DNA of 64,000 nt from Bacillota bacterium (GCA_021793645.1 JAJYSJ010000002.1:144753-208752), one strand, 5' to 3'. Positions 22,049 through 47,333 are shown, counted from the stretch's first letter. The notes: a model not told the origin generated them from the letters alone. Numbers and translations are program-made.

Positions 22049-22063
22049 AAACTTCTTGGCGCG

Positions 22064-22150
22064 CTTCCCTACGCTGGCATGACCCAGTTCAGGTTCGAAG
22101 GGTCGGCGCGATTGCACCTCTCAGCCTCGCCTACGAGGCTCCCCTAGCGT
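22064..22150 (-). promoter_or_regulatory. TPP (thiamine pyrophosphate) riboswitch, THI-box aptamer
   Basis: Minus-strand sequence ..GGGGAGCC..GCUGAGAGG..ACCCUUCGAACCUGAACUGGGUCAUGCCAGCGUAGGGAAG matches the conserved THI-element core (CUGAGA, ACCCUU.GAACCUGAUC.GG.UAAUGCCAGCGUAGGGAA). Confidence 0.85.
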
Positions 22151-22197
22151 TCGGAGTAATCGTAGCACGCGGGCACACCCGATGCACTACTTGCCAC

Positions 22198-24057: not shown

Positions 24058-24133
24058 GCGCCCGTAGCTCAGTGGATAGAGCGCTTGCCTCCGGAGCAAG
24101 AGGCCGCAGGTTCGAATCCCGCCGGGCGCGCCA
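24058..24133 (+). tRNA. tRNA-Arg (anticodon CCG)
   Basis: 76-nt cloverleaf with a 7-bp acceptor stem GCGCCCG/CGGGCGC, D-loop AGCTCAGTGGATAGAGCG, anticodon loop cuCCGga, T-loop GGTTCGAATCC and an encoded CCA. Confidence 0.9.
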
Positions 24134-24169
24134 AGTTTGAAACCCCGCAACCCGCTCCAGGAGCGGATT

Positions 24170-24217
24170 ACAGAACCGAGGCACTCCCGAAGGAGTGCCT
24201 CGGTTTCTGCGCTTTTG
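24170..24217. terminator. hairpin terminator downstream of tRNA-Arg (GAGGCACUcccgaaggAGUGCCUC + UUUCUGCgcUUUU)
   Basis: Read directly; it lies between the convergent tRNA and RibD_C genes. Confidence 0.5.
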
Positions 24218-26799: not shown

Positions 26800-26940
26800 A
26801 TCGCGCCTGCACGGGGTGGATCCGTTTTGGACCGTCGTTACCCCTCAAGTGGATCCCGTTTGGTCCATCGTAGCCAACGGTGGGAAACGACGGGGAAGCG
26901 TTGTCCCAAAACCGCTTCAGAAGGCGATGGCTAGCCTCCG
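26800..26940. repeat. copy C of the IS607/TnpB right-end (omegaRNA-scaffold-like) repeat, partial
   Basis: gggaaacgacggggaagcgttgtcccaaaaccgcttcagaagg matches copies at 31163-31320 and 36412-36552. It is preceded by an internal ~24-nt direct duplication (tggatccgttttggaccgtcgtta / tggatcccgtttggtccatcgtag). Confidence 0.45.
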
Positions 26941-27255: not shown

Positions 27256-28305
27256 CTAGATCTCGGGACCACCGAAATCCACTTCCGCCTGCACCAGGCG
27301 CTGAGCGTCACTCAGAAAAGCCTGCTTCATCTGCTCGAAATCCAGCGGCACCAGCATAGCCACATCCTTGGGGTCGACGCGCTCGACCTGCTGCAGCGCC
27401 TTGGCGAACCAGCTCCGGTTGAAGCCGGGGTCCTTCGCCTTCGCCACTTCCATCAGCTTGTCGAGACCATACCTGACCTCAAGCATGTACACGTCAACGA
27501 AGTCCCGCGTCGTGGCGCGGCCGAACAGAGCTAGCGTCTTGTCCGCGGCGAGGTCCCGCAGAGACCGCACCGGCATGCCCTCGACTGTAGACTTGGACTT
27601 CGCGAGCTGGAACGGCGAGTCTTGCCCGATCTCCACCTTGATCCCGGCCACCCACATGCGCACGAACGACGGCCGTTCGTCGCTGGCACTCCGCTGCACT
27701 GAAAGGCCATCCTGCTTGCACGCCTTCGCAAACTCGTCAGCCGCATCCCCCACCCGAATCCCCAAACTGAAGAAATCCAGGTCGTCGGATCGGCGATGAC
27801 CAAGGTAGGCAGCCGCAAGCGCCGTTCCGCCAGCCAGTTCGAAACCGCGTTGTGCCAGCACTTGAGCGGCCACACGCAACACCCGGCGATGCTCGTCTCC
27901 AAGTACCAGATCGCGCCTGTCCTGCACGTCGGCCGCCTCCTTGCAGACCATGCTCCACAGCTTCGCCGCGCCCCCGAACAAGGGGAGTTGGTCCACGATA
28001 GGCGCCAGGGCGGCGAGATCGAGACGGCGCCAGTCGTTGGCGTTCCCTTCCAAAAGGATGGAAGTAACGGCTCGCCGCGCATCGGCGTCATCGTTGATCT
28101 CAATCGGCTTGGGCCAGGACCAGAACAGGCGAATGGACTCGGGCGGGACGGTGCCGCCGGGGATGGCGCGGAGGGCCGACGCGTCTCTCGCCACCTCTCT
28201 CGCCACCTCGCCGCACCTCCCTTTCGGTCCCTTTGCTCGAAGGTACCACATTGGCGCTACAGAGACCGCAGGAAGAGCCTCTGCTTCAGGCGATGCCCGA
28301 ATCAC
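27256..28305 (-). CDS. nucleotidyltransferase of the AbiEii/AbiGii toxin family (DUF1814) with N-terminal extension
   Basis: Motif ELAGGTALAAAYLGHRRSDDLDFF, characteristic of AbiEii NTases, sits at residues ~160-185. ~130 aa precede it. No AbiEi-like partner is adjacent. Confidence 0.7.
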   Translation of the reverse strand: MIRASPEAEALPAVSVAPMWYLRAKGPKGRCGEVAREVARDASALRAIPGGTVPPESIRLFWSWPKPIEINDDADARRAVTSILLEGNANDWRRLDLAALAPIVDQLPLFGGAAKLWSMVCKEAADVQDRRDLVLGDEHRRVLRVAAQVLAQRGFELAGGTALAAAYLGHRRSDDLDFFSLGIRVGDAADEFAKACKQDGLSVQRSASDERPSFVRMWVAGIKVEIGQDSPFQLAKSKSTVEGMPVRSLRDLAADKTLALFGRATTRDFVDVYMLEVRYGLDKLMEVAKAKDPGFNRSWFAKALQQVERVDPKDVAMLVPLDFEQMKQAFLSDAQRLVQAEVDFGGPEI

Positions 28306-28983: not shown

Positions 28984-29290
28984 CACCTGCTCCCCTTTCG
29001 CCCTTTTGGTTCGCGAGTGCCCGTGCCGCCCCTCCCCAATTGCTGGGGAAACTCGAGCTTCCGTGATAGAAGTCAGTGTACCGGAGTGAAAGTTGGAGAA
29101 GATTCGCCGGTGGGCGTAGATCTTGGCCATGAATTGCTGGCTGAAATAGCGGCGGGTGGCGGCGGCCCGCTCGTGGACCCCCGGCCCGCACCCCCCTCGT
29201 TTACACCGCGATAAGGGCCGCAGGCAGGGTCCGGAAGGGGTATGAACAGTTCGCTTGAAACCGATTCAGACCTTATCTAAACTTATCACT

Positions 29291-29917
29291 ATGGAGAGAT
29301 ATGTTGGGATAGGCGAGGCAGCCAAAGCGTTAGGTGTATCCATCACGACGCTCAGGCGGTGGGAAGTACAGGGCAAGCTGATTCCCGAACACACGGCCGG
29401 AAGGCACCGCCGCTATGACCTGGCCAAGCTCAGGCCGGAGATGCACCGCAGCACTCCCGATGAGCGGCGGACGATCGCGTACGCCCGCGTATCCAGCCAC
29501 GACCAGAAGGACGATCTGGAACGGCAGAAGCAGGTTCTGGAGCTGTACTGCGCTCGCCAGGGCTGGACGTTCGAGATGGTGTCGGACCTTGGATCGGGGA
29601 TGCATTACCAGAAGAAGGGTCTCAGGCGTCTCCTCGGCGAAATCCTCGACGGCCACGTGAGCCGGTTGGTGCTCACCCACAAGGACAGACTGCTGCGCTT
29701 CGGCGCGGAACTCGTCTTCGCCATCTGTGAGGCCAAAGAGGTGGAAGTCGTCATCCTCAACCAGGGCGAGGACACAACCTTTGAAGAGGATCTGGCCAAA
29801 GACGTTCTGGAGATCATTACGGTGTTCTCGGCCAGGCTCTACGGACGTCGCTCCCGCAGGAACCAGAAGCTGCTCGACGGTGTGCGCAGGGCGGTCGAGG
29901 AGGCGCAGGAATGCTGA
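29291..29917 (+). CDS. tnpA: IS607-family transposase TnpA (MerR-like HTH + serine recombinase)
   Basis: N-terminal MerR-type HTH (YVGIGEAAKALGVSITTLRRWE) and a serine-recombinase catalytic region (IAYARVSSHDQ). Confidence 0.85.
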   Translation: MERYVGIGEAAKALGVSITTLRRWEVQGKLIPEHTAGRHRRYDLAKLRPEMHRSTPDERRTIAYARVSSHDQKDDLERQKQVLELYCARQGWTFEMVSDLGSGMHYQKKGLRRLLGEILDGHVSRLVLTHKDRLLRFGAELVFAICEAKEVEVVILNQGEDTTFEEDLAKDVLEIITVFSARLYGRRSRRNQKLLDGVRRAVEEAQEC

Positions 29918-31119
29918 TGGCGCACAGGATCGCACTCAATCCCAACCGAAGGCAGGCGACGTACTTCGCAAAGGCGGCGGGGACGGCGCGATTCGCGTAC
30001 AACTGGGCGCTTGCGGAGTGGGACCGTCAGTACACGGCGCACCGTGAGGATGCGTCCCTCCCTGCCCCCTCGCAGGGGGCCCTTCGTCGCCAGCTGAACG
30101 CGATCAAGCGTACGGAGTTCCCGTGGATGCTTGAGGTGACAAAGAACGCACCCCAGATGGCGATCATCCAGCTCGGACAGGCATTCCAGAACTTTTTCGC
30201 AGGTCGAGCGAGACGCCCAAGGTGCCGAAGGAAGGGCGTCGACGATCACTTCACCCTGACGAATGATCAGTTTTGTGTGGCGGGGCGGCGCATCCGCATC
30301 CCGAACCTCGGATGGGTGCGCATGCGTGAGAAGCTGCGCTTCCAGGGTAAGATCGTGTCGGCCACGATCTCCCGAAGCGCGGATCGCTGGTTTGTCTCCA
30401 TCACCGTGGAGACGGACCAGGCTCCGAAGCGTCCTGCAGAACACCTGGGCGCGGTTGGTGTGGATCTCGGCGTACTCACCCTTGCAACGCTCTCGACGGG
30501 GGAGCGGATCCCTGGTCCGAGGGTGCTCAGGAAGCGGGTTGGACAGCTTCGCCGCCTGTCGCGGAGTCTCAGCCGCAAGCAGAGGGGATCGAAGAACCGT
30601 GCCAAAGCGAGAGCCAAGCTGGCACGTCTTCATGCCCGGATCGCCGATATCCGGCTGGACTCCCTGCATAAGCTCACTTCGGACCTCGCGCGCCGCTTCG
30701 ATGTGATCGGCATCGAGGACCTGAACGTTCGAGGCATGGTGCGCAACCACCGCCTTGCCCGCTCGATCGCCGACATGGGCCTTCGCGAACTGCGCAGGCA
30801 GCTCGAGTACAAGGCCGCGCGGCGCGGAGCCGTCGTAGTGGTGGCGGATCGCTTCTTTCCGAGCAGCAAGCGCTGCTCTGCCTGCGGCTACATCCAAAAC
30901 GAGATGCCGCTGTCGGTACGCTTGTGGACATGCCCGGCTTGCCGCATCACACACGACCGGGACCTGAATGCGGCAGTCAACCTGGCCCAATACGCCGTGA
31001 GTTCCACGGTGTCTGCCTGTGGAGGGGAAGGCTCTGGCGACGGTCATCCGGCTGTAGCGAAACCAGCCCCGGCGAAACAGGAAGTTAGCGCCAAGATACC
31101 CTTGCGTAGTTTTGGATAG
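29911..31119 (+). CDS. tnpB: TnpB (OrfB, RuvC-like RNA-guided endonuclease)
   Basis: RuvC-I (GVDLGV), RuvC-II (IGIEDLNVRGM) and a C-terminal zinc finger (CSACGYIQN..CPACRITHDRDLNAAVNL). Confidence 0.9.
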   Translation: MLMAHRIALNPNRRQATYFAKAAGTARFAYNWALAEWDRQYTAHREDASLPAPSQGALRRQLNAIKRTEFPWMLEVTKNAPQMAIIQLGQAFQNFFAGRARRPRCRRKGVDDHFTLTNDQFCVAGRRIRIPNLGWVRMREKLRFQGKIVSATISRSADRWFVSITVETDQAPKRPAEHLGAVGVDLGVLTLATLSTGERIPGPRVLRKRVGQLRRLSRSLSRKQRGSKNRAKARAKLARLHARIADIRLDSLHKLTSDLARRFDVIGIEDLNVRGMVRNHRLARSIADMGLRELRRQLEYKAARRGAVVVVADRFFPSSKRCSACGYIQNEMPLSVRLWTCPACRITHDRDLNAAVNLAQYAVSSTVSACGGEGSGDGHPAVAKPAPAKQEVSAKIPLRSFG

Positions 31120-31162: not shown

Positions 31163-31320
31163 GAGACACGCTTGCTAACGGTTTGCTAACGCTTTTTGAG
31201 AGAAACGGCGGCATACGGCGGGAAACGACGGGAAAGCATTGGCCCAAAAACCGCTTCAGAACGCCATTGCGGCAAGTCACGGGATACCACGGAAAGCCCT
31301 CTCCTTGCCTCCGGAGCAAG
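31163..31320 (+). repeat. copy A of the right-end / omegaRNA-scaffold-like repeat directly after tnpB
   Basis: ttgctaacgctttttgagagaaacggcgg...gggaaacgacgggaaagc..ccgcttcagaa..ggaaagccctctccttgcctccggagca, with structured stem-loops. It ends exactly where the partial tRNA-Arg copy begins. Confidence 0.5.
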
Positions 31321-31437
31321 AGGCCGCAGGTTCGAATCCCGCCGGGCGCGCCAAGTTTGAAGCCCCGCAACCCGCTCCAGGAGCGGATTACAGAACCGAG
31401 GCACTCTTGATGTAGTGCCTCGGTTTCTGCTCTTGCT
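31304..31437 (+). repeat. direct repeat of the tRNA-Arg(CCG) 3' half (anticodon arm to CCA) plus ~85 nt of tRNA-downstream sequence; candidate att site
   Basis: cttgcctccggagcaagaggccgcaggttcgaatcccgccgggcgcgccaagtttgaa[g]ccccgcaacccgctccaggagcggattacagaaccgaggcactc matches 24081-24189 with 1 mismatch. Homology continues through the terminator hairpin with a diverged loop. Confidence 0.8.
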
Positions 31438-31774
31438 AACGCTTTTTCTTGGTTCCAGTTTGGCGGTTTCCAGTTCGCGTGCCGCTGATCACTGCGTCCA
31501 GCCTGTTCGCTGCCTCACGTTGCAGGTTCGGTAGGACACGGCTGTATGTGTCCATGGTCATGTCGATACGGCTGTGGCCGAGACGCTCTTGGACGATTTT
31601 CGGGTGGACGCCCTCGGCCAGCAGAAGAGTCGCCATCGTGTGGCGCATGTCGTGTGGCCTGAAGTGCGATAAGCCAGCGCGCTTGAGTACGCGGGCGTAG
31701 TCGCGACCCTCCTGGACGCGCGGCGCGGGGGTGAGGCGAAGACCGTGATGGCGGATCTGGCTCTGAGCCTTCAC
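31436..31774 (-). pseudogene. tyrosine recombinase/integrase C-terminal fragment (5'-truncated)
   Basis: Only the last ~110 aa of a phage-integrase catalytic domain are present (HDMRHTMATLL ... LGHSRIDMTMDTYSRV, i.e. the His/Arg/Tyr region). No N-terminal domains lie upstream. Confidence 0.7.
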
Positions 31775-32021: not shown

Positions 32022-32384
32022 TTAGAGATCGATCTCGGGATCTCGCTTTGTGGGTACCAGCTTCTCCAGCCTCGCATGCAACGGCGGCACATCTTTCGTC
32101 GCAATCTTCCACACGAGATCAAGCCGAACACTGGCATATCCGTGAATGAGCGTGTTGCGAAGATCCTTAACCACCCGCCACGGTATCTCCGCGTAGAGGG
32201 ATTGGTAGACTGGGCTCACTTTCGAGCCGGCCTCTCCGATGATCTCCAGTGCTCGGATCACCGCGTCCTGGGTGCGCTCATCGGCCTCGAACGCGGGCCA
32301 ATCGAACCCGGCAGTGTATCGTTCCACCTTGGCACAGGCGTCGCGCATGTTGCGGACGTACATCTCATCAGTGTGTAGCGACAT
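32022..32384 (-). CDS. hepT: HepT-like toxin (DUF86, nucleotidyltransferase substrate-binding/RNase domain)
   Basis: R-x4-H-x-Y motif (RNTLIHGY) in a 120-aa protein overlapping the mntA-like gene. Confidence 0.8.
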   Translation of the reverse strand: MSLHTDEMYVRNMRDACAKVERYTAGFDWPAFEADERTQDAVIRALEIIGEAGSKVSPVYQSLYAEIPWRVVKDLRNTLIHGYASVRLDLVWKIATKDVPPLHARLEKLVPTKRDPEIDL

Positions 32385-32682
32385 AGACGACCCTCCTGCG
32401 TCGGAGCACGTCCTCGGCGATGTATGGGCTCAGGGTGCTCTTCTCGATGAGATCGACCTGACGGTGGAACACCTCGTCCTCTAGCGCATGCTTCATCCTA
32501 ATGAAATCAAAAAGGCTCTCCACAGGGCTATCCTGCTCGAAGTCCACCAGTACGTCGACGTCGCTCTCTGCGGTGAAGTCATCGCGGAGGACCGAGCCGA
32601 ACAGGGCCAACTCCCGGACCTTGAAACGCTGGCACACCTGGGCAAGATTGGCCGCGTCCACTGCGGTCTGCACTCCCTCCAC
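32368..32682 (-). CDS. mntA: MntA-like minimal nucleotidyltransferase antitoxin
   Basis: NTase fold motif GS-x10-DxD (LFGSVLRDDFTAESDVDVLV). GTG start with a G-rich RBS; the longer track ORF is rejected. Confidence 0.7.
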   Translation of the reverse strand: MEGVQTAVDAANLAQVCQRFKVRELALFGSVLRDDFTAESDVDVLVDFEQDSPVESLFDFIRMKHALEDEVFHRQVDLIEKSTLSPYIAEDVLRRRRVVYVATH

Positions 32683-33327
32683 GATGCTTCCCCCCCCTTG
32701 GCCGCAGTATAGCATTGGTCCCTGGATGACGCATAAGTGCGGGAGCACGGGACATGACGATCGCCCTCCGCTACATTTGCGCAAAGCGTTTGGCCACTGG
32801 CTCACCTGGATGCAGCACGGTGCTGATCGGGACGAGGCTCTCGATATCGTTGAGCACCAAGCGGCCGTTAGGAAGCCGCCCGAAGTTTTCGGGGATGGCG
32901 TCGCCCACGCCGTCAGGCACGGCATGCTCCAGGCCTGCCGATCAGGGCCGCGAGCTTCTTAACCGCGGCGACATGAGCTGCCGCGCGAGGCGACGGCTCT
33001 TACCGGAACCCGTGGAGCCGACCAGCAGGGTGTGTTCGTCTCTCGTTGTGACCCAGTCCGTGGTGCCCGCGCGGCCGACGAGGACGCCGCTCTCCTTGGC
33101 GCCCGGACGCCAGGCGTTGAGCGTCCGCGTCATGTCGCCGGCCGTGCGCCTGTGTGCGGTGCCGTACTCGCCCTTGCCGGCTGCCTTGGGGCCGCCAGAT
33201 GCGACAGGGCTGGAACCACTCGCCAGCCGCCAGTTCCAAGCGAAACTCCGGTGCGTACGGCAGCCTCGACTTCGGCATCCTGGACGTCCTCCTCTCGATC
33301 TCCTAGACGCACGCCCGTGGGCCTTTG

Positions 33328-33368
33328 GGGACCCGCTCCGGAGCGAGGAAGGGGGCAACCTTCGGTTT
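33328..33368. repeat. 41-bp sequence forming a perfect inverted repeat with 42516-42556 (gggacccgctccggagcgaggaagggggcaaccttcggttt)
   Basis: Exact reverse-complement match read in both places. It contains the internal palindrome CCGCTCCGGAGCGG. Confidence 0.8.
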
Positions 33369-33499
33369 CCCCCTCGGACCCTCTTCCGTCCGGATGTGTA
33401 TCAACACATCACATCCCGGAACCGCCCACTCTCTCCCCAAGCGTTGCCTAGTTTCCAAAGAGTTCAGACTGTCCGCCTTACCGGAGAAAGCTCAGAAAC

Positions 33500-34295
33500 G
33501 CCCCAAAAGGCGATCGTTCCTATCGACCTGACGCCACCCATCGTGCAGGGGACAACCAACATCGCCCCCAATGCTAAGGGCTGGTTCCGCACGGACGTGA
33601 CCGTCGCGTGGAGCGCGACCGATCCGCCCTTGATCGACGGGCACGCGGGCTCGGGAGTGGCAGAGGTCTCGCCTCCGGTGACCATCACCCAGGAGGGCAA
33701 GGGCATAACGGTCACCGGACAGGCGACCGACAATGCTGGCAACGTCGGAACGGGCGAAATCTCCCTGAACATTGACAAGACGCCGCCTACGATCACCATT
33801 AGCGAACCCCAGTGGGGCAGCTATCTCGACGACCAGAACCTCACCCCATCCTTCTCGGCAGCCGACAGCCTCTCGGGAGTCGATACGGTGCAGGCGAGCG
33901 TCTACGGTCAATCGGTGACAAATGGCCAAACGATCCAGCTCTGGCAGCTCCCCCTCGGACAGGTTCCCTTCACGGTGACCGCCTCCGACAATGCCGGCAA
34001 CATTCCCAGCCAGACTGTCACATTCACGGTGACCACGAGCCTCGCAAGCTTGGAGGGCCTTGTCGGACAGTTCACGTCGATGGGGCTCATCACGGGCCAT
34101 GGGTTGGCCGAAAGTCTGACCGCAAAACTGCACGCAACCGAGGCGGCTCAGTCTCGAGGAGACTTGACGACGGCAGCGAATCAACTTGGTGCGTTCGTGA
34201 ACGAGGTTAACGCGCAGACGGACAAGGGAATCGCATCCGAAGCCGCAGCGGTGCTCCTGCGTGACGCGCAATATGTGCTCAATACCTGGGAGTGA
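33500..34295 (+). pseudogene. 3' fragment of a surface/cell-wall-associated protein gene (Ig-like repeats + C-terminal FIMAH-like domain)
   Basis: The downstream part of ORF 32754.. encodes repetitive beta-rich segments (TVTGQATDNAGNVGTG..FTVTASDNAGNIPSQ) and a helical tail (LTAKLHATEAA..LGAFVNEVNAQ). The upstream ~250 codons are R/P-rich non-coding-like sequence with no plausible start or signal peptide. Confidence 0.4.
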
Positions 34296-34858
34296 TAGAC
34301 CTCGTGGATATTCAGGCTGAGGGTAGCCCCCACAGGCGAACCGACCGCTGGGCAGTCCGCTCACTGTGGTTCGTCCTGCTAGCGTTGGCCGGATTCACCG
34401 CGTGGAGCTATGCGGAAGGCGGTTTGGTACCTGCGACGAGCTTTGCCGTAGGCGTACTGGTCGTCTGGATCCGGGGATTCCTGCAGAACGCTGTAGTCTT
34501 TGGCATCCTCTCACTGGCGCTTTCGGCATGGCCGGGAGGGCGTTCGTTCTGGCTTGGCACCACGGTGTTGTCGGTTCTCACGGCCATCCCCGTAGACTTC
34601 TACAACGCCGCGACAACCTCGTTCAACAACATCGCTGCCTCGCCGTTCTTCTCCCCCTTCACCCGTTTTCTTCTCTTGCACAGCTGGCTTGAGTTCGCTG
34701 CGTACGTCCTCCTGCTACTCGCCGTGACCACATGGGTTACGCTGTTGTACTTCCCTAAACTCCGCGGCTGGCGCTTTGCCGTCTTCTGGGTGGTGACGGT
34801 CGCCTCCGGCCTGGCGCTTCCCGCCGGGAGCTTCTGGCATGCAGTGCGACCTGGTTGA
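34292..34858 (+). CDS. hypothetical membrane protein (4-5 TM)
   Basis: Hydrophobic ORF overlapping the stop of the preceding fragment. No recognised family; start codon uncertain. Confidence 0.4.
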   Translation: MIDLVDIQAEGSPHRRTDRWAVRSLWFVLLALAGFTAWSYAEGGLVPATSFAVGVLVVWIRGFLQNAVVFGILSLALSAWPGGRSFWLGTTVLSVLTAIPVDFYNAATTSFNNIAASPFFSPFTRFLLLHSWLEFAAYVLLLLAVTTWVTLLYFPKLRGWRFAVFWVVTVASGLALPAGSFWHAVRPG

Positions 34859-34897
34859 GCAATGGTTCGCCGACGGCGGGTGGACAAGTACATGGCG

Positions 34898-35110
34898 CTA
34901 GTGGACGATGACTGCCCTCCCCAGTGCCAGCGCGTCGTCGATGCCCTTCCCCTCCTTCCATGGGGCCGTTAGCGCCCGCACTCCGAACACCTGAAGCGCC
35001 TCCCGAAACTCGGCGAGGTTGCGCTCCACCGCCCTGCGCGTCTCCTCGCGCTCGTCCTGGTCGAAGGCCAGAATGACACGCTCGGCACCGCTCTCCTGCA
35101 CCACCGGCAC
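34898..35110 (-). pseudogene. Toprim-domain (primase-like) gene fragment
   Basis: VILAFDQDEREETRRA ... GKGIDDAL resembles the Toprim DxD and GKDWND region of DnaG-like and plasmid/phage primases. Only 70 codons. Confidence 0.35.
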
Positions 35111-35119
35111 GCCGATCTG

Positions 35120-35923
35120 CTGGGCGCGGCCACGCTCACTGCGGGGCTCGCTTGTCTGCTGGCGGCCCTGGTAACAGCCGGTCAGGGATGGGGCCAGCCC
35201 CGTGTTCTGGAGCTAGTCGCGGCCTCCGCCGCACTCCTGGTGGTGTTCTGGAGGATTGAGGCTGCCGCTGACAGGCCGATGCTGGATCCTAGGCTGTGGC
35301 GCCGCCCCGTGTTCGTGGCGGCGACCTTGGCCGCCCTGTTCACTGGACTCTCGGTGATCGGCCTCATGAGTTACCTGCCCACCGTGCTGGAGCGGGTGAT
35401 CGGCCTGACGCCGTGGGCGACAAGCCAGCTGTTCGCGCTCTGGGCCGGCACGTCGTTCGTCGCCACCATGTTGGCCCGCCGACGCGGGTTCGGCCTCCAC
35501 GGTCACCGCAGCGTCGTTGTCGGCCTCGCCGTCTCGGCTGCCGGGGATCTCGCCTTGTGGGGCTTGACTCGGAGTGCCGGCGTCTGGCACCTCATTCCGG
35601 GTCTAGTGGTCTCGGGCGTCGGTTACGGCCTACTAAACGCCGTGATCGGGCGACTCGCCCTGGAGAGCGTCCCGGACCGCGGCAGCACAGGTTCGGGAGT
35701 GAACAATGCTACCCGCTACATCGGCTCGGGCATCGGCGTCACGCTTCTGATGGCGGTAAGCCGTCCCTCCGTCGGGCCCGCGGCCACGATGGTGCACGAC
35801 CCGAATCTCGCACTCGTCATCGGCGCCGCCATCGCCGTCCTTGGCGCGGTGTCGATCGCCACCGTGCGAGACACGCCACAATCCGTCGTACTTGCCGCAC
35901 AGGCCCAGGCTCCTAATGACTGA
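35120..35923 (+). pseudogene. 5'-truncated MFS (DHA2/EmrB-like) transporter gene; only the C-terminal ~6 TM helices remain
   Basis: The reading frame continues upstream of the annotated M without any start and abuts the Toprim fragment. The C-terminal half of a 14-TM drug-efflux-type MFS is recognisable. Confidence 0.5.
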
Positions 35924-36411
35924 CGGGCGAAGGTCGTCCAGACACGGGGACCCTCCCGCCGCGCGCCCCCAGGCGTATCGTCCCGGCTATTGCTCGCAAC
36001 GAATGCGCGCGCTATGGCCAGGCCCCTGCGAGTCGCGAAGGTCGCGTAGGCCCGTATGGCGAGGGTCCCCATGGCCTTCACCTTGACCTACACTGCGCAG
36101 CCAGGCTCACGGCGTTGGGAATCTGGGTGAAGCCGCCGGCCAAGCGTAGATCCGTACTCGGCGCAAAGAACACAGCGCGTTGCGGTTCGTCTGGTAGCAC
36201 CGCACCACCCCCTGACAAAAAGAAAGCCGGTACCGCCGACGGCAGGTGCCCGGTACTAATAGCAGCTTTCGAAGAAGAGATGCCCCTCACACCGCTTCAG
36301 GAAATTTCCGGATTGCCGGTGTGCGGAACTCCCCGTCGCACCCGTCTGGGGCCCCACGGATAAGCAGAGTTCGGAGCCCATCGAGGACCGAAGCTGGAAA
36401 CGCCTCAAGGC

Positions 36412-36552
36412 GCATTTGCTAACGCTTTTTTTGAGAGAAACGGCGGTAAGTAGCGGGAAACGACGGGAAAGCGTTGTCCCGAAACCCGCTTCAGAAGGGC
36501 GTTGCAGCAAACTGCAGGATGGCGCGGAAAGCCCTCTCCTTGCCTCCGGAGC
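36412..36552 (+). repeat. copy B of the right-end / omegaRNA-scaffold-like repeat (orphan, no adjacent tnpB)
   Basis: tttgctaacgctttttttgagagaaacggcggtaagtagcgggaaacgacgggaaagcgttgtcccgaaacccgcttcagaag...ggaaagccctctccttgcctccggagca aligns with copy A over ~140 nt. It overlaps the 3' end of the disrupted RibD_C gene. Confidence 0.5.
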
Positions 36553-37384
36553 AGCCGCTGGGATAACCGGGACCAGTCAGGAGAACTACTCCCAGGGTCT
36601 TTGCACCCGTGACACATTCCCCGGGCTTCCCTTGTATGGTGATTCCGGAGAGCTTGGCTCCGGTGGTTCGAGACGATGTTGGTAAGGCGCTTGGAAGAGG
36701 GGTTAGGGGGGAACCGAAAAAGGTGTCCCCCCTCCCGCGGGCCGCGGCCAACGGAATATCCAGCCAGGCAGACACGGCTTCTTCGGAATCTCCGCCCTTC
36801 AGGGCGGGGAGGTTCAAATGGATCTCATCGAGGAGCCCTGCTCTGAGGCACTGCTGGGCGACGTCTGCCGATCCGACCGCAATGGTGCGTTCGCCGGCGG
36901 CGCGTCGCGCCAGTTTGAGTGCGCTCTCTAGCCCATCCGTCACGACAGTCCCGCCGGTGCCAGGTCCCACCCAACGCTGGGGCGGAGTGTGCGTGAGCAG
37001 GAAGAATGGAGCGCCGCTTGGGTGGTGTCCTCCCCATCCGTTGGCGATATCGAACGTGCGCCGACCCGTGAGGATCGCCCCGCAGTCGAACATCTCCCTC
37101 ACCCCTTACAGGCTGCGTTCCGGCGGTCTGACGCGGTTGTCATCACCGAGACGCCGCGTGCCGGCTGTCCACCATGCGAAGGGCTTGGCGCCACCGTCGC
37201 CCAGCGGATTGTCCGGACCATCATTCGGGCCGGCGACGAATCCATCCAAAGACACTGTCAGGTCCACCACGACCTTGCCCATGTTGCCCCTCCTCACCTC
37301 CGAGCACCTAGCGCCCTCTCGGGCGGTCCAGGATCCGGCATTCGGCTTGCTTGCGTGCTGGCTTTGGCCGATGCGCTTGCACAT
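36491..37384 (-). pseudogene. disrupted dihydrofolate reductase-family (RibD_C) gene: in-frame TAA after codon ~92 and altered C-terminus
   Basis: The N-terminal part (MGKVVVDLTVSLDGFVAGPNDGPDNPLGDGGAKPFAWW) and the continuation (..FDCGAILTGRRTFDIANGW..GGTVVTDGLESALKLARRAAGERTIAVGSADVAQQCLRAGLLDEIHLNL) are in the same frame, separated by a single TAA (37106-37108). The expected RibD_C C-terminus is replaced where repeat copy B begins. Confidence 0.6.
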
Positions 37385-37460
37385 CAGTCATCCACCGGCC
37401 GATCGCCATGGGGTGACGCGTCATCCGGCTTTGGTGACCGTCATTACGGAGCCCTGTCCG

Positions 37461-37922
37461 TCAGCGGAGCGATCCGACGTAACGCTCCAACCGCTGCAGC
37501 TGCTGCGTCCAGCCGATCTCCATGCCGTCGAGGTACGGATCTGCCGCCGACGTCTTGCGCAGCACAGTCATGGTCACCGTCACAGTGGTTCTGCCGTCCT
37601 GCTCGGCGAATGTCACGAGTGTGCGCATCTCGAAGAGGAACGCCCCGTTCTCGCTCATCGCGGACGTCGTGTACGCGAGCCGCTCCGGGGCGCGGATCTC
37701 GTCGTATGTGCCCGTCATCGGGTAGACCGCCCCATCCGGTGCGCGCATGTCGATGCGCAGGGCACCGCCCGGCCGCAAGTCGATCTCGCACACAGGGATC
37801 GTGAATCCGTGCGGTGCCCACCATTGTGCGACATGCCTCGGGTCGGTCCAGATCTCGAACACGAGTTCCCTCGGTGCATCGAGCGTGCACTGGAACTGCG
37901 CCTCGTCCCTACTCCCTGCCAC
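37461..37922 (-). CDS. SRPBCC-superfamily protein (AHSA1 / activator of Hsp90 ATPase homolog-like)
   Basis: AHSA1-domain similarity (..ELVFEIWTDPRHVAQWW..). Overlaps the arsR-like gene by 14 nt. Confidence 0.8.
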   Translation of the reverse strand: MAGSRDEAQFQCTLDAPRELVFEIWTDPRHVAQWWAPHGFTIPVCEIDLRPGGALRIDMRAPDGAVYPMTGTYDEIRAPERLAYTTSAMSENGAFLFEMRTLVTFAEQDGRTTVTVTMTVLRKTSAADPYLDGMEIGWTQQLQRLERYVGSLR

Positions 37923-38259
37923 CGTCGAGGCCTCCCTTCTCCTGGAGCGTTCTCAGGTAGCCGTCGAGGCGCCCGAACCGCTCTTCCCAGAGTGGCCGGT
38001 ACTGCTCGACCCAGTCCGCCACTTCGTGCAGCGGGGCTGACGCGAGGGTGCACGGGCGCCACTGGGCGCGGCGCGACTGCGTGATCAGGCCAGCCTGCCG
38101 CAAGACCTTGAGATGCTTCGACACCGCTGGAAGGCTGAGATCGAAGGGCGCCGCGAGCTCGCTCACGGACGCCTCCCCTTTCGCCAACCGGGAGAGCATC
38201 GCCCGGCGGGTCGGGTCTGCCAGCGCCGCGAAGGTGGCGCTCAGAGGATCTGCTGGCAC
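37909..38259 (-). CDS. ArsR/SmtB-family transcriptional regulator
   Basis: ALADPTRRAMLSRL..ASVSELAAPFDLSLPAVSKHLKVLRQAGLI helix-turn-helix signature. GTG start with a GAGGTG RBS. Confidence 0.85.
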   Translation of the reverse strand: MPADPLSATFAALADPTRRAMLSRLAKGEASVSELAAPFDLSLPAVSKHLKVLRQAGLITQSRRAQWRPCTLASAPLHEVADWVEQYRPLWEERFGRLDGYLRTLQEKGGLDGGRE

Positions 38260-38261
38260 AA

Positions 38262-38310
38262 GAATTTCACCTCTTGATTAAGTAACCCTTTGATTAAATA
38301 ACCGCTGGGC
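38262..38310. promoter_or_regulatory. AT-rich tandem 14-nt direct repeat (TTGATTAAGTAACC / TTGATTAAATAACC) directly upstream of the arsR-like start; candidate operator
   Basis: Read directly. It is unusually AT-rich for this genome and overlaps the RBS/promoter zone. Confidence 0.35.
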
Positions 38311-38915
38311 TAAGTAAAAACCATGGAGCCCGATTCCGTCAAGCAATCTCGAAGAAACAAGAGAGACCGGGGCGCGTTGCGGCCGTCCCAGTCCTTCTGA
38401 CCGAAACCCGTAGCGGCGTTCCGCTTCGTTGACGCGGAGAAGGCGTCGCACAGCGTGATGATCCTCTGCCGGGGTAGCCCGTAGGGCTGCAGGCCGGGCA
38501 GCGGGCCGGAGCTAAGCGGCTTGCGGCGGCAGGAAGCGGCGTGGCAGTTCGTGCACCACCGGGTGCAACTTTGGGGTCTAGTCAACGCTCTTCGACGAAC
38601 CAGCGGTGACACTAGGTGGCAAATGGTGAGGCCGGCTGGGCGCAAGACGTGGGGCCGTGCAGGTTTTGGTTGTGGACCAGCCGAGTGGGCGGATGAACGA
38701 TCTTCCTGACTGAGGTCCGAGAACAATATGGGCCGGGACGTGGTACGCCTTAGAAACCTCGAGACAACCCTTCGCCGTCCACCGGTTAGGCCTCAGACAG
38801 AGCGACCGCATACCACGCACACCCGCACAAAACCCAGCCCTGCAAGGCTGGGGCAACCGCCACGTTGAGTCCACGCTTTGTTGACACGGTGGAGAGTGTT
38901 CAGTAGCTTCAGGGC

Positions 38916-39878
38916 ATGGCACACTTAACGGAAGGCTTTTGGGGTGCGTTCCAGGTGACTCAGCGCGGCACCGTAGTGGCAGAGGCCGCAGCAGGTCCGG
39001 CCGCCCACACCACGAGTGCGAGGCTTGACACCTGCTTTCAAGCGGCGTCGATTAGCAAGCAGTTTGTTGCGGCCTCGCTGATGCTGTTGAGCGAACGTGG
39101 GGTCTTGAGCCTCGACGATCCCATCCGACGTTGGTGGCCGTCTACCCCGAAGTCGTGGGATCGGATAACCGTTGAGCAGTTGTTAACACACAGTTCGGGA
39201 CTGATGCACTGGGGAGACATTCCGGGGCTGGACATCTCCCGGCCACCATCTCCTAGAGACATCCTGGCTGAAGCTATCACATTGCCCCTGTTGAGTGCCC
39301 CTGGGACACGATGGGCCTATAGTGGGGTGGGCTTCCTACTCGCCGCGGCGATAGTCGAGGCCGCGAGTGGTAGGCCTTATGGGGAGTTCGTCACAGATAA
39401 CATCTTTAGCCCCTTGGGGATGACTTCCACTACTTCCGGCCAGACGCCCGATGGTAGGCGAGTAGCGAAAGGGCACCGTGACGGTCAGCCGGTCCCCTTA
39501 GTCGCGGGGTTGACAACGTGGCCGGGCACAGGCGATCTCTGGACGACCGTAGCCGATCTTATCCGCTATGCCGACGCGGTACGTGCCGGAGATCTGTTGT
39601 CCGACCGGTCGCAGCGACTGATGGCGCATCCGCACATCATGATCCAGGACAGCCCGCCCAACGGCGGGGCAATCTCGCCAGTGGCGTACGGCTACGGGAT
39701 CTTCACGGGAACCATCGCTGGCCATCCTGCGCGCTTCCATCCCGGCGACAACCCTGGCTTTCGGTCCCTTCTGGCCTGGCTCCCCGAGGCCGACATAACG
39801 CTCGCGGTGCTGTCCAATGAGGAGTCGACCACGCTGGATGAGATCGTTCCCCGCTTTCTGGGAACTATCACTCGATAG
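38916..39878 (+). CDS. serine hydrolase of the beta-lactamase / PBP family (class C-like fold)
   Basis: S-x-x-K active-site motif (AASISKQF), a YSGVG (Y-x-N-like) region, and the size of an AmpC/esterase-type hydrolase. Confidence 0.8.
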   Translation: MAHLTEGFWGAFQVTQRGTVVAEAAAGPAAHTTSARLDTCFQAASISKQFVAASLMLLSERGVLSLDDPIRRWWPSTPKSWDRITVEQLLTHSSGLMHWGDIPGLDISRPPSPRDILAEAITLPLLSAPGTRWAYSGVGFLLAAAIVEAASGRPYGEFVTDNIFSPLGMTSTTSGQTPDGRRVAKGHRDGQPVPLVAGLTTWPGTGDLWTTVADLIRYADAVRAGDLLSDRSQRLMAHPHIMIQDSPPNGGAISPVAYGYGIFTGTIAGHPARFHPGDNPGFRSLLAWLPEADITLAVLSNEESTTLDEIVPRFLGTITR

Positions 39879-39996
39879 CGCAAACCCGCGAAGTATCTCA
39901 GCCTACGTGGCACTGCCTATTATGCGAGCCGATCAGCGCAAGCTGGCCAAGCATAGTAACAGGATCGAGCCGTATTGCATCTTGACCTCTGCGGGT

Positions 39997-40030
39997 GAGG
40001 AGGGCGAGCGCCTTTGACGCTCGCCCTCCC
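39997..40030. other. GC hairpin (GGAGGGCGAGCG cctttga CGCUCGCCCUCC) between convergent genes
   Basis: Perfect 12-bp stem. No U-tract, so terminator function is uncertain. Confidence 0.3.
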
Positions 40031-40033
40031 TGC

Positions 40034-40120
40034 CTACACCAGTTCCACGAACATCTCGCCGGCTGCCTCGTCATTCGGTGCCGTGACCGTGTTGCTCCTC
40101 GTGGTGTGACTCGAAGCACA
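40034..40120 (-). pseudogene. remnant of a paralogous VWA-gene 3' end (encodes ..VTAPNDEAAGEMFVELV*)
   Basis: ~75% nucleotide identity to the 3' end of the intact VWA gene (..VTAPDDEAAGEMFAELV*) ~260 nt upstream on the same strand. Confidence 0.4.
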
Positions 40121-40292
40121 GGGAGAGGCGTGTCGCAGTTCCGTCTCTCCCTGCTCTATGGGGCGGCAAAATGGGGCGGCAGCGCGGAGGCTGCGGATGG
40201 AGACCAGCGGGTAAGCTCCTGCGATACGCCACCGATTCTTCAATGGAGCCACAGTGAGAACACTGCAGAAGTGCCCTCTGGCAGCATAGCAC

Positions 40293-41573
40293 TCAGACCA
40301 ATTCCGCGAACATCTCCCCCGCCGCCTCGTCGTCTGGCGCTGTAACTGCCCACACGCGATCGGACCATTTGGACAGTTCCGTGGGGATGCCGCCGATCAG
40401 GATGCTCATGATGCGCAGGCCGCGGTCCTTTTTCGTCTTCATCAGGCGGTTGAAGAACTCGTCGGAGACCGCGCACTCGCCGTCCGAGATCATCACGATG
40501 TCCGCGTGGCGTAACTTCGACTCCGCCTGGACGTCGAGCGCCCAGGAGAGCGGCACTTCGTAGCTGGTCCCGCCGTTTGCGCCGATCGTGGCGAACCGGA
40601 AGATTTCCTCCGGCGGTGCCTTGCCGCGCTCGAAGCGGAACTCCGCGAGGATCTGCGTGTCGAAGAAGACCGCGGCGAAGTCGCGCTTCTGCCGGCGGGC
40701 GGTGTCCATCAGCGCAAGGCCCACAGCACTCGCCCACTCGATCGGGTTGCCGCTCATCGACCCCGAGGCGTCGATCAGGCAGATCACCGGGCCCTTGCCC
40801 TCGCGCTGGATCGGTCGCACCTCGTACTCGAGGAGCTTGTGCTCCAGGAGGCGTCGCCCGAAGTCGAGCTTCCGCAAGGGGTCGGAGAGGGCGGCCATCT
40901 CGACGGGCAGCAGCCGGCCGATGTGGTCGCCCAGTGTGATGCTGTGGTACTCGTCGCGCAGGTGCTTGAGCGACCCGCCCTGCTTCGACCGAGCGAGGTT
41001 CCGCAGCCGGCCGATCAGGAGTGCAATCCGCTTGAATCGTGGGGGCATTAGCTGACGCGCCAGTTCGATCCGCTCACCGAGCGGCATCTGCGTCAGCCCT
41101 GAGCCGTCGAAGCCCCAGGAGATCATCTGCTCCTGCACGTCCTGCGCCTGCTCCATGCCGGCCTTGACTGCGTGCCTCAGCGCCTTGTTGAGTTGTCCCT
41201 GCGCCTGCGGCGGCGGCTCGGTGCCGTTCTCCATGCTCTGGTCGAGCGCCGGGTTCTTGGCGATCTCCTCGGAGAGCACCTTGCCGGTCTCGAGCGTCGC
41301 CACCGCGGCCGCCAGCTCGTCGAGCTGGGTAAACGCACGGGTCTGCTGGGTGGCGTCGTCTTCGAGCAGGCGTTCGCCGTAAGGGCGCTTGCCCTTGTGG
41401 GACGCCGCGACCTGATGCTCCTCACGGATCTCGGGCTGGAGCTTGTAGTAGGCGTTGAACGTATCCTGCATGGCTACGATCGAGCAAACGGGACCCGCCC
41501 CATACAGGCGCGATTGAGCAAAGTGGGACCACCGTTCGAGCTTACCCTGTAGATTTGGAATGGCACAACCCAT
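40293..41573 (-). CDS. von Willebrand factor A domain protein (CoxE/VWA-MoxR-partner type)
   Basis: VWA MIDAS motif DASGSM and a TSY..D region at the C-terminal half; long helical N-terminal region. The exact start is unresolved (possibly MQDTFNAYYK). Confidence 0.75.
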   Translation of the reverse strand: MGCAIPNLQGKLERWSHFAQSRLYGAGPVCSIVAMQDTFNAYYKLQPEIREEHQVAASHKGKRPYGERLLEDDATQQTRAFTQLDELAAAVATLETGKVLSEEIAKNPALDQSMENGTEPPPQAQGQLNKALRHAVKAGMEQAQDVQEQMISWGFDGSGLTQMPLGERIELARQLMPPRFKRIALLIGRLRNLARSKQGGSLKHLRDEYHSITLGDHIGRLLPVEMAALSDPLRKLDFGRRLLEHKLLEYEVRPIQREGKGPVICLIDASGSMSGNPIEWASAVGLALMDTARRQKRDFAAVFFDTQILAEFRFERGKAPPEEIFRFATIGANGGTSYEVPLSWALDVQAESKLRHADIVMISDGECAVSDEFFNRLMKTKKDRGLRIMSILIGGIPTELSKWSDRVWAVTAPDDEAAGEMFAELV

Positions 41574-41596
41574 CCAGATCTGCAGGAGGCATAGGA

Positions 41597-42515
41597 GTGA
41601 GAACGGTGGCCGATTACGAGTTTATCAGGCGACTGCACGTCGAGCACGGGTTATCTATCCGTGAGATTTCGCGGCAGTACCACCATTCGCGGCGGACCAT
41701 TCGTGACGCACTGGCATGGGATGGTTCCGGGGCTGCGTTCAAGTACGAGCGGCGCAAACCGGCGGTGCGACCGAAGACCGGCTGCTACGTTACGATCATC
41801 GATACGTGGCTGATCGCGGACCAGAAGGAACATCCCAAGCAGCGGCACACGGCGAAGCGGATCTGGGAGCGGTTGCGCGACGAGTATGGCGCCGATGTCG
41901 CGGAACCCACAGTTCGCCGGCTGGTGGCGCAGCGACGCATGGAGGTGGCGCCAAAGCCGCGGCAAGTCTTCCTGATGCTGACCTTTCAGCCAGGGGACCT
42001 GGCGCAGGTGGACTGGGGTGAGGCGTGGGTCTGGGTCGACGGCATCAGGACGAAGGTCTACCTGTTCTGCATGCGGCTCGGGTACTCGACAGCGCCATTC
42101 GTGATGGCCTTCCCGAGCATGCGGATCGAATGCTTCCTTGCCGGACTCGTATTGGCGTTTGCGTACTTCGGTGGGGTGCCGCGGCACATAATCTTCGACA
42201 ACCTGTCGTCCGCCGTGAAGCGGATCCTGCGGGGCCACCGGCGAGAACTGACGTCAAGGTTCCAGCAGCTCGTGGCCTACTACCTGTTCCAGCCGGAGTT
42301 CGCGAACCCAGCAGCTGGCTGGGAGAAGGGCCTGGTGGAGGGACTCGTCGGCTATGCGCGGCGCAACTTCCTGGTGCCGGGGCCCAAGGTGGCCTCTTTG
42401 ACGGAACTGAACGACTACCTTCAAAGCAAGACCTTGGCGCAGAGGGAGCACCGGGCTGCCGAGCGCGGGGAGCGGACCGTCGGCGAGCTCTGGCGCGAGG
42501 AGGCAGCCCACTTTC
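41597..42515 (+). pseudogene. istA: IS21-family transposase IstA, 3'-truncated; no istB
   Basis: N-terminal HTH (YEFIRRLHVEHGLSIREISRQYHHSRRTIRDAL) and the DDE-region start (LAQVDWGEAW...FDNLSS). The ORF stops being IstA-like at the 41-bp inverted repeat (42516) and no IstB ATPase gene follows. Confidence 0.7.
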
Positions 42516-42556
42516 AAACCGAAGGTTGCCCCCTTCCTCGCTCCGGAGCGGGTCCC
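42516..42556. repeat. second copy (inverted) of the 41-bp repeat, abutting the truncated istA
   Basis: aaaccgaaggttgcccccttcctcgctccggagcgggtccc is the exact reverse complement of 33328-33368. Confidence 0.8.
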
Positions 42557-42663
42557 TGTAGCTTGCGGACTCTCGGCGGGTAGTGCGCCGCCGCACATTA
42601 TAGCGCCCCCGAAGGCCAATCGGCGTGCGGGGGTGCTCGATCGGATCGCGAACAATGGCTCCC

Positions 42664-43863
42664 TCAAGGGGTCGACGACCCAGTGGCGTATGCGCTCGCA
42701 CTCCGCGCATCCCGCGCGCGCACCGACCACACGAGGATTACGCCCGAGAGCAGGGCGACCGCCGAGACCAGCGGGAAGGCCAGGTGCGCGCCACCAGCCT
42801 GGAGCAGGACCCCGACCAGCAGCGGTCCGAGCGCCGCCCCGGCATTCTTCACGCTGAGTGCCCCGAACGTGCGGCCGCGCACCGCTTCGTCCCCCATCGC
42901 GGCCTCATAGACGGGCATCACGACGTAAACCATCATTTCGCCAGCGGTGAACACCACCATCGTGCCGAGCAGCGCAAGGGGGCTGCGCAGGAACGCGATG
43001 CCAAGGTACGCGGAGGCGAAGAACGCGAGCCCGAGGGCGAACCCCTTCGCGGGGGGTATGGAGCCGAGCCACCGGTTGAGCGGGATCTGGAGCAGCGCCA
43101 CCATCGCCGTGTTGACGAGCGTCATCCCGGCGTAGAGCGCGAGCCCGCCTGGTACCGCGGTCCGCAGGAATGCGGGGAAGATCGTCTCGATGACCATGTA
43201 GACGCCGAGCTGCATCGAGCCGCCCAGCACGTAGAGCCAAAGCGAGGGATCGCGTCCGATCCGCCGCATCGCTTCGCGGTTCGTCACCTGCCGCAAGCGG
43301 CGGCCGGTTTCAGGGACGGTGGCGTAGAGCAACAGCACGACGAGCAGGTTCGCGACCGCGGCGCCCGAAAAGACCGCGGTCGCGTGGTGCAGCACGAAGA
43401 AGGCGCCGATGAAGGGTCCAATCGCCGCCCCCACGTTCAGCGCCACCCGCCCGTAGGCGTAGGCCTGAGCGCGCTCCTCCGGCCGTGTGACGTCGGCGAT
43501 CGCGGCGCTCTGCGCCGGTCCCGCGATGGCTCTCGACATGCCGTTCAATCCGTTCAGCAGGGCATACGCGAGCGGTCCTTGCGCGATGGCGAACCCGGCC
43601 ATCACCGCCACCGAGAGGATGTTCCCGACCAGCATCGTCCGGCGGCGTCCGAGGTGGTCCGCGGCCATGCCGCCGAGGGCTCCTGCGAGCACGCGTACGA
43701 GCGGTCCCACGCCGGCGACCACGCCGGCCAGGGCGAAGCCCGCGCCCGCCTGTGTCAGGCGCACCGCGATGAAGGGCAGCACCATATAGCTCGCAACCGC
43801 TCCGAAGAACCGAGCCACCGCGAGGGAGAGGACTGGTCCCCTTGGTCTCACCCAGGGGGTCAC
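42664..43863 (-). CDS. MFS transporter
   Basis: 12-TM MFS pattern. The start is placed at the GTG before PRGPVLSLAVARFF with a GGAG RBS; the 631-aa track ORF has a ~230-aa low-complexity N-terminal extension judged non-coding. Confidence 0.65.
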   Translation of the reverse strand: MTPWVRPRGPVLSLAVARFFGAVASYMVLPFIAVRLTQAGAGFALAGVVAGVGPLVRVLAGALGGMAADHLGRRRTMLVGNILSVAVMAGFAIAQGPLAYALLNGLNGMSRAIAGPAQSAAIADVTRPEERAQAYAYGRVALNVGAAIGPFIGAFFVLHHATAVFSGAAVANLLVVLLLYATVPETGRRLRQVTNREAMRRIGRDPSLWLYVLGGSMQLGVYMVIETIFPAFLRTAVPGGLALYAGMTLVNTAMVALLQIPLNRWLGSIPPAKGFALGLAFFASAYLGIAFLRSPLALLGTMVVFTAGEMMVYVVMPVYEAAMGDEAVRGRTFGALSVKNAGAALGPLLVGVLLQAGGAHLAFPLVSAVALLSGVILVWSVRARDARSASAYATGSSTP

Positions 43864-46904: not shown

Positions 46905-47333
46905 ATGGCGGCGTACCGGGACAGGGAAGAGATGGTCGAAATCTTCGCAACCTTGGCTGAACGCGCAGCATCCAGCCAGGCGGCCAAACTGCTGCATAAC
47001 TCACGAATGGTGGTCTCCTTCGTCTACCGCAATCCGGATCTCGTTCTCGTGATGGACGGCCGCACCGCCCAAGAGGGCGAACCGCCCATGCTGATGCGCT
47101 TTGACACAGCGGAACCGAAGCCGGATGTCACGTTCGAGTGCTCCGCCGATGTCGGGCACCAGTTCTGGCTCGGCAAGCTGGACGTACCTCAGGCGCTCGG
47201 CCGCGGCATCGTCAAGGCACGCGGCTCGATTGCCAAGGCACTGAAGCTCCTGCCCATGATGCCGCCGCTCTACGACGCCTACCGTCAGGTGCTCTCGGAG
47301 CGCGGCGGCCTGCAGGGAGGCGATCTGCGATGA
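46905..47333 (+). CDS. SCP2 sterol-carrier domain protein
   Basis: SCP2-like C-terminal motif ([18 protein letters not shown]). Paralog of 56672..57121 (~60% identity by eye). Its stop overlaps the ADH start. Confidence 0.65.

Follow-up and report, generated by a model that had tools for sequence, protein, structure and literature searches.

The 64,000-nt stretch of DNA analysed here (the window; JAJYSJ010000002.1:144753-208752), which is part of a Thermaerobacter sp. metagenome-assembled genome, carries a perfect inverted repeat inside an array of decayed mobile elements. The repeated sequence, GGGACCCGCTCCGGAGCGAGGAAGGGGGCAACCTTCGGTTT (the 41-mer), lies at 33328-33368 on the plus strand and recurs as its exact reverse complement at 42516-42556, so that two arms of 41 nt, 100% complementary, face each other across 9147 nt. 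An earlier note, made by reading the sequence, had described this exact pair, and our searches confirm it: the window contains these two matches only, even with up to 3 mismatches tolerated, none occurred in any of 100 dinucleotide-preserving shuffles, and low-stringency BLAST of the window revealed no further copies. The repeat is therefore real and beyond chance. All four of its edges are sharp ends of identity, and the similarity between the 200 nt beside each edge does not rise above that of shuffled controls. Both copies lie within the array that is anchored at a tRNA-Arg(CCG) gene, and the other ~45 kb of the window, made up of ordinary genes, contains 0 copies.

On its left side the right copy abuts the remnant of an insertion sequence of the IS21 family, a family that encodes the IstA transposase and the IstB ATPase, generates 5-bp target duplications and has ends with repeated IstA sites and a terminal CA (PMC10122671). 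The left end of the remnant, with its repeated GAGCAAA-N-GGGACC sites, agrees with that published description. Its other end is missing: the element breaks off at nt 1045 out of about 2.97 kb. To define the ends of the insertion sequence we used a single element that occurs in two contexts (L007 and L008; 99.9% identity over 2969 nt) and whose copies have the 5-bp duplications AGACT and TGCGT. The istA open reading frame matches NF033546 (E 1.3e-78, model positions 1-290 of 294), including the helix-turn-helix and the DDE core, and the homology stops at residue 321, that is, at nt 42515. At exactly the same nucleotide stops the alignment of window 41477-42515, at 89% identity, to an intact IS21 (L002) that encodes an IstA of 499 aa plus IstB. 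Since this identity ends at 42515 and intact IstA proteins run on for ~180 aa past the break, starting LPLP..., the right 41-mer is, judged by alignment, foreign to IS21. Indeed, it contains no GAGCAAA and is followed by no right-end sequence. The earlier note was thus correct in saying that the right copy ends the IstA frame in mid-protein with no istB. Neither IstB nor the IstA C-terminus, orf3 or the IS21 right end is found anywhere in the 64-kb window, and the same is true of two further sequences, one from the gene into which the IS21 was inserted and one from its usual upstream partner. The interrupted gene encodes a VWA protein; its intact relatives (92% and 85% identity) are 451-453 aa long and are preceded by a bpMoxR AAA+ gene, and in the window both MoxR and the VWA N-terminus are absent, the DNA homology of the region to three related loci (L022, L023 and L024) ending at 41470. 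From all these absences we conclude that a large deletion, of several kb, ends at the right 41-mer.

On the other side of the right copy, a flank of 107 nt leads to the stop codon of an MFS gene. Neither the fetched loci nor plasmids contain anything similar to this flank. The comparison with related genomes that the earlier note had proposed was run with seven relatives of the MFS protein (~80% aa identity), which have no neighbouring genes in common and provided no empty site, so the flank beyond the right 41-mer cannot be called native chromosome. Exact-protein look-ups with the MFS, beta-lactamase and IstA genes returned the same genome only.

Past the 41-mer, the sequence at the left copy goes on inward as part of a longer unit, as far as 33496, which is not the case at the right copy (Table 1). 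The left 41-mer includes a 12-bp perfect palindrome (CGCTCCGGAGCG, 33334-33345) together with the 5' arm and the loop of a GC hairpin, and the 6 nt beyond it (33369-33374) supply the 3' arm that completes the hairpin; a further palindrome then follows. The 3' arm is present at the left copy only: the right 41-mer lacks it and ends within the hairpin loop. Read on the minus strand, the complete 169-nt sequence runs from a TCTGAGC... boundary through a stem-loop, the palindrome, the GC hairpin and the 12-bp palindrome to GGGTCCC. The RNA fold of this strand is moderately more stable than shuffles (z = -2.37, with 2 of 200 shuffles equally stable), and the GGGUCC end of the 41-mer takes part in its closing helix; the 41-mer regions themselves fold with ordinary stability (z -1.4 to +0.2). 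At one boundary, 33328, the identity with the right copy ends and the flank is different; directly after the other, 33496, a surface-protein gene fragment starts.

We treat 33328-33496 as a module of a mobile element because the 33496 boundary recurs with another flank in an unrelated metagenome contig (L019, Logan run ERR12814472). There, 31 nt match window 33496-33466 at 27/31 positions (E 4e-5), and the flank is a truncated IS21 istA instead of the surface-protein gene fragment; this recurrence in an independent context is a single short match and concerns one end of the module only. The k=31 unitig L019 ends once its last 30-mer sits wholly within the module, as one would predict for repeated elements. 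The istA of L019 belongs to a different IS21, and its break lies about 24 nt upstream of the position equivalent to the window break. Two different IS21 istA genes therefore adjoin the module, in the same orientation and within 24 nt of each other. This coincidence is partly due to our having selected IstA hits truncated near the break, although the shared module is not so explained, and the two istA junctions meet different parts of the module: its boundary in L019 and nt 129 in the window. Interruptions of istA a few codons from the window break were seen twice among the fetched loci, by the module in L019 (1203-2123) and by another IS21-family element in L018 (6001-9231).

Table 1. Features around the two copies of the 41-mer, in window coordinates
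Feature	Position	Strand	Remarks
tRNA-Arg(CCG)	24058..24133	+	anchor of the array that holds both 41-mer copies
Second, diverged VWA gene, 58-nt fragment	32933..32989	-	joined to the coupling-protein fragment
VirD4-like type IV coupling protein (CD1115 family), N-terminal fragment, ~75 aa	32987..33217	-	tblastn
41-mer, left copy	33328..33368	+	12-bp palindrome plus 5' arm and loop of the GC hairpin
169-nt module, non-coding, hairpin-rich	33328..33496	-	holds the left 41-mer
GC hairpin A-GGGGG-CAACCTTCGGTTT-CCCCC-T	33350..33374	+	direct sequence reading; folds
Palindrome GATGTGT-ATCA-ACACATC in the module	33393..33410	+	direct sequence reading; folds
Surface-protein gene fragment, 5'-truncated	33497..34295	+	Ig-like (Big_7), OmpL47-type and FIMAH domains
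VWA gene without its first ~61 codons	40293..41471	-	interrupted by the IS21 insertion
IS21-family remnant	41471..42515	+	intact left end TGGCTACGATCGAGCAAACGGGACCC...; istA codons 1 to ~320
41-mer, right copy	42516..42556	-	orphan piece; broken IS21 on one side, 3' flank of the MFS gene on the other
Flank D, 107 nt	42557..42663	.	between the right 41-mer and the MFS stop codon
MFS gene	42664-43863	-	stop codon faces the right 41-mer

The genes on either side of the module are themselves fragments. The module lies upstream of the coupling-protein fragment, which is 110 nt from the left 41-mer and breaks off just past the Walker A motif. When this fragment was compared by tblastn with 40 conjugative plasmids, the best match (E 4e-9) was the start of the coupling-protein gene of Sulfobacillus pL15, and a homologue search with it returned the fragment itself only. 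A possible ribosome-binding site with an ATG at 33278 is in a frame other than that of the fragment. The 58-nt VWA piece joined to the coupling-protein fragment is 86% identical to L022 and, by eye, about 75% identical to the VWA gene of the window itself, evidence that relics of duplicate elements as small as this survive here. On the other side, as the earlier note had stated, the left copy lies just upstream of a gene fragment lacking a start, the surface-protein reading frame that begins about 130 nt past it. Promoter and terminator scans gave nothing relevant.

No relaxase or integrase can be assigned to the module, the window's only integrase sequence being a C-terminal fragment (31436-31774) that belongs to the tRNA att site. 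The module is undescribed and has no match in any collection searched: exact searches with sub-patterns of the 41-mer found none in the GTDB representative genomes, the JGI metagenomes or IMG/VR; a degenerate pattern of the module boundary had no match in metagenome or viral contigs; both junction regions gave no match by BLAST against plasmids and phages; and Rfam returned nothing at gathering thresholds, the best hit of a permissive scan (E 0.92) being at chance level.

The surroundings of both copies carry the marks of repeated integration. The 3' half of the tRNA plus the hairpin downstream of it (24084-24214) is repeated at 31304-31434 with 95% identity, as att repeats, and the sequence just upstream of the second att repeat recurs at 36415-36553 (83%) and at 26877-26931. 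Since the att repeat and the island-end sequence recur, integrated elements must form a tandem array that runs from 24.1 kb to at least 42.5 kb. This array contains an IS607-type unit, the integrase C-terminal fragment, a HepT/MNT pair, a DUF3854 fragment, an MFS fragment, an ArsR/SRPBCC pair, a beta-lactamase-family gene and the VWA gene, a content that points to decay. The earlier note's description of the interval between the two copies as fragments and small cargo agrees with what we see there, namely the DUF3854 and MFS fragments, a weak RibD_C-like reading frame, the ArsR/SRPBCC pair, the beta-lactamase-family gene and the VWA gene.

We consider it, on balance, probable that these data reflect a mobile module present in two inverted copies, of which the right one was reduced by deletion. 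The 41-mer would be the terminal part of the ~169-nt non-coding module, which in turn would be either a small self-contained element or the end region of a conjugative element that encodes a VirD4-like coupling protein. The tRNA-Arg array would have received two copies of the module, in opposite orientations; the left one would have stayed complete, while the right one, which we infer to have once been a full module, would have been cut by a deletion to its last 41 nt and fused to istA at codon ~320. The same loss would have taken the 3' 1.9 kb of the IS21, the first ~61 codons of the VWA gene and the adjacent MoxR gene. The inverted repeat would then be the overlap kept by an intact and a truncated copy of a recently duplicated sequence, its perfect identity reflecting the recent duplication of one element. 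The order and the number of the deletion events, like the mechanism of the module's mobility, belong to this reconstruction. Support for it comes from a setting in which such debris is common: the 58-nt VWA piece, an 82-nt match to L023, three island-end or att copies, and the coupling-protein, DUF3854 and integrase fragments. The two inverted copies of an element proposed in the earlier note, as one of three options, come closest to these findings: the module does appear to be present twice, in inverted orientation and with its right copy at a deletion junction, but there is no evidence that the repeat caused a deletion or an inversion. With 41 bp of perfect identity, a rare RecA-dependent inversion of the 9.1-kb interval could occur; we saw no sign of it, and two assemblies show one orientation.

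Several points weigh against two inverted copies of a mobile module. Neither terminal inverted repeats nor target duplications accompany the module, no recombinase was found for it, and no second full copy came to light in the window or in the collections searched, so that its mobility is argued from a single 31-nt match to one foreign contig. Elsewhere in the region, duplicated sequences are no more than ~75-95% identical, so a 41/41 match calls for a duplication in the recent past, and yet the right copy is already heavily deleted. Each of the two variants, which fit about equally well, also has its price. The conjugative-element end would explain the left copy without coincidence but needs two deletion end points, one on each side of the 41-nt relic, whereas the self-contained 169-nt element would explain the right copy with one deletion but must place the left copy exactly at the junction of two unrelated fragments.

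The earlier note's other options were the terminal inverted repeats of an uncharacterised transposon and a REP-like palindromic unit. That the 41-mers bound a 9.2-kb transposon or pseudo-compound transposon (33328-42556) is hardly credible, even though the repeat is perfect, has a Tn3-like length and carries a G-rich tip. Looking for target-site duplications at the outer edges, as the note had suggested, we found none of 2-10 bp (the left flank ends in ...GGCCTTTG and the right one begins with TGTAGCTT..., CTTTG versus TGTAG), nor does the interval include a transposase that would use these ends, the only one inside it, the truncated IS21 IstA, having its own unrelated left end at 41471. The interior is a mosaic, in which the mid-gene cut of an IS21 coincides exactly with the right repeat's inner edge, the inner sequences diverge immediately past 41 bp, and, as described above, sub-patterns and flanks went unmatched in the collections searched. 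In the reading that we favour, the 41-mers are not a pair of functional transposon ends. A REP-type repeat of high copy number, which we group with an assembly artefact and hold to be very improbable, accords poorly with two copies in 64 kb, both in mobile-element debris and none in ordinary chromosomal sequence. As for an artefact, what speaks for it is that one MEGAHIT assembly (ERZ27237162 = GCA_027322755.1) breaks in the left hairpin, with contigs that end at 33374 and start at 33354 and overlap by 21 nt. This break could be due to a coverage gap at a hairpin or to population heterogeneity. The contig ending at 33374 already has 6 nt of correct continuation past the left 41-mer, and the window's own 262.6-kb contig runs through the left junction. 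Both junctions of the right copy, moreover, are the same in two assemblies, and there is no k-mer overlap able to create the join of IS21 to the 41-mer or that of the 41-mer to its flank.

A more serious alternative, although still an unlikely one, is that the right copy is the by-product of a one-off rearrangement, copied from the single left module. Either the 41 nt were inserted as a templated patch in the repair of a break that deleted the 3' part of the IS21, or the 9.1 kb were inverted after a staggered break, with the sequence between the nicks being duplicated in inverted orientation. Perfect identity, inverted orientation, unrelated flanks and the lack of a target duplication would all be expected. 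The right copy is also placed exactly at a deletion junction, and there is partial complementarity between the 3' end of the IS21 remnant and the 41-mer beside it (GCGAGGAGGCAGCC versus GGTTGCCCCCTTCCTCGC). However, direct reading of the sequence reveals no microhomology at the right-copy junctions, a fold across the right junction is no better than shuffles (z = -0.87), and inversions by staggered breaks that duplicate ~40 bp are known mainly from eukaryotes. Nor would such an event explain why the module lies beside a truncated istA in L019. According to another idea, which we find quite improbable, the module carries a recombination or transfer site, in which case the edges of the 41-mer would have been made by an enzyme and the parent element would target codons 300-320 of IS21 istA. 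Candidates for the site would be an origin of transfer, nicked between GGTTT and CCCCC in the hairpin, or a secondary attachment site like the anticodon stem-loop of the tRNA-Arg. The position of the left copy just upstream of a coupling-protein gene fragment, the coincidence of one 41-mer edge with the loop/arm boundary of the GC hairpin, and the two istA genes that adjoin the module all argue for it, as does the resemblance of CGCTCCGGAGCG to the att-repeat hairpin ACCCGCTCCAGGAGCG and to the anticodon arm CCTCCGGAGC. Against this, no relaxase or intact integrase is present in the window, the similarities are short and were noticed post hoc, and the istA coincidence is lessened by the selection of truncated hits and by the different module parts that the two junctions join. 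As an att-type site the 41-mer is not convincing, the similarity to the tRNA att being marginal, with 17 of 1000 shuffles scoring as well.

In a bolder form, the 169-nt module would be a self-contained mobile or recombinogenic unit without terminal inverted repeats, the module or a parent conjugative element would prefer the region of istA codons 300-320, and the hairpin-loop edge of the 41-mer would be an enzyme-made cut (a relaxase nick or the site of a single-strand transposase) and not a random deletion end. We regard this as decidedly unlikely. Should the module turn out to move independently, or to be a site of transfer or recombination that targets IS21 transposase genes, this would be an unusual element-against-element relationship, in the poorly studied high-GC Bacillota (Thermaerobacter).

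Comparison with known systems places the locus as follows: (i) The left neighbour of the right copy is like the IS21 family in its left end, its GAGCAAA-N-GGGACC sites and its IstA helix-turn-helix and DDE core, but it is a remnant, without istB, orf3 or a right end with IstA sites ending in CA, and the 41-mer itself lies outside IS21. (ii) Like the ends of integrative conjugative or mobilisable elements of Bacillota, the module is non-coding, hairpin-rich and placed upstream of a CD1115-family coupling-protein fragment, with a boundary apparently seen in two insertion contexts (by one short match); unlike them, it has no assignable relaxase, integrase or second end, and no DNA similarity to plasmid or phage records. 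(iii) The palindrome-associated elements derived from IS200/IS605 are miniature, non-autonomous and without terminal inverted repeats. The module resembles them in its length of ~170 nt, in having neither inverted termini nor a target duplication, in its hairpins near both ends and in that each boundary is seen against two different flanks, although the window has no Y1 transposase and one complete copy only. The module flanks run GGGGCGTT and GTCGGCGA up to the boundary (GGCGTT versus GGCGA), few copies from which no conserved target tetranucleotide is established. (iv) REP and BIME sequences are palindromic intergenic repeats dispersed in many copies. The 41-mer is likewise short, GC-rich and palindromic, with one copy downstream of a gene, but there are only two identical copies, both in debris, and none in the ~45 kb of ordinary genes. 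(v) In switches of the Hin/Gin or integrase type, short inverted repeats bound an invertible segment. Here, too, perfect inverted repeats flank a discrete segment, but no recombinase gene lies beside either repeat and the segment consists of 9 kb of gene fragments, in one orientation in two assemblies. Taken together, the phenomenon is of a known kind, the decay products of nested mobile elements. It provides a worked example of a striking perfect inverted repeat arising passively in a mobile-element graveyard, and a caution against taking such repeat pairs as transposon ends.

Three further identities for these sequences were tried and rejected. The 41-mer with its right flank is not the right end of the IS21: alignment to intact right ends, three in number, speaks against it, and the CTGCA duplication that one would expect is missing. 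Nor is the 41-mer an IstA binding site: it has only the nonamer GGGACCCGC in common with the end of the insertion sequence, the GAGCAAA part and the terminal sequence being absent, and this nonamer is not rare (5 occurrences in the window versus 1.8 expected). A 15-nt identity with the istA of IS21-B had suggested that the left region might be a diverged istA fragment, which would make the right junction a sense/antisense U-turn; a six-frame IstA profile search and BLASTP ruled this out.

Several other observations concern the array and its surroundings. The third island-end copy (36415-36553) is cut right after the anticodon-loop sequence CTCCGGAGCA, as if by secondary-site recombination. The IS607-type unit (29255-31119) lies just before the second att repeat and consists of a serine recombinase gene with a MerR-type helix-turn-helix (29255-29917) that overlaps a TnpB gene (29911-31119); the HepT/MNT toxin-antitoxin pair (32022-32925) and an AbiEii-family nucleotidyltransferase gene (27256-28305) are also within the array. 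The 82-nt stretch at 38468-38548 is 91% identical to L023 12947-13028, which lies ~1.6 kb downstream of a VWA gene, a spacing much like that in the window, and the genes between the VWA gene and this stretch have apparently been replaced by the beta-lactamase-family gene. Outside the array, two minus-strand riboswitches score well above the Rfam gathering scores, one for c-di-AMP (14943-15073, 81 bits) and one for TPP (22049-22155, 75.6 bits). Another inverted repeat, of 187 nt (47115-47301 and 56695-56881; 74% complementary, or 77% over 229 nt by BLAST), probably corresponds to paralogous genes in opposite orientation.

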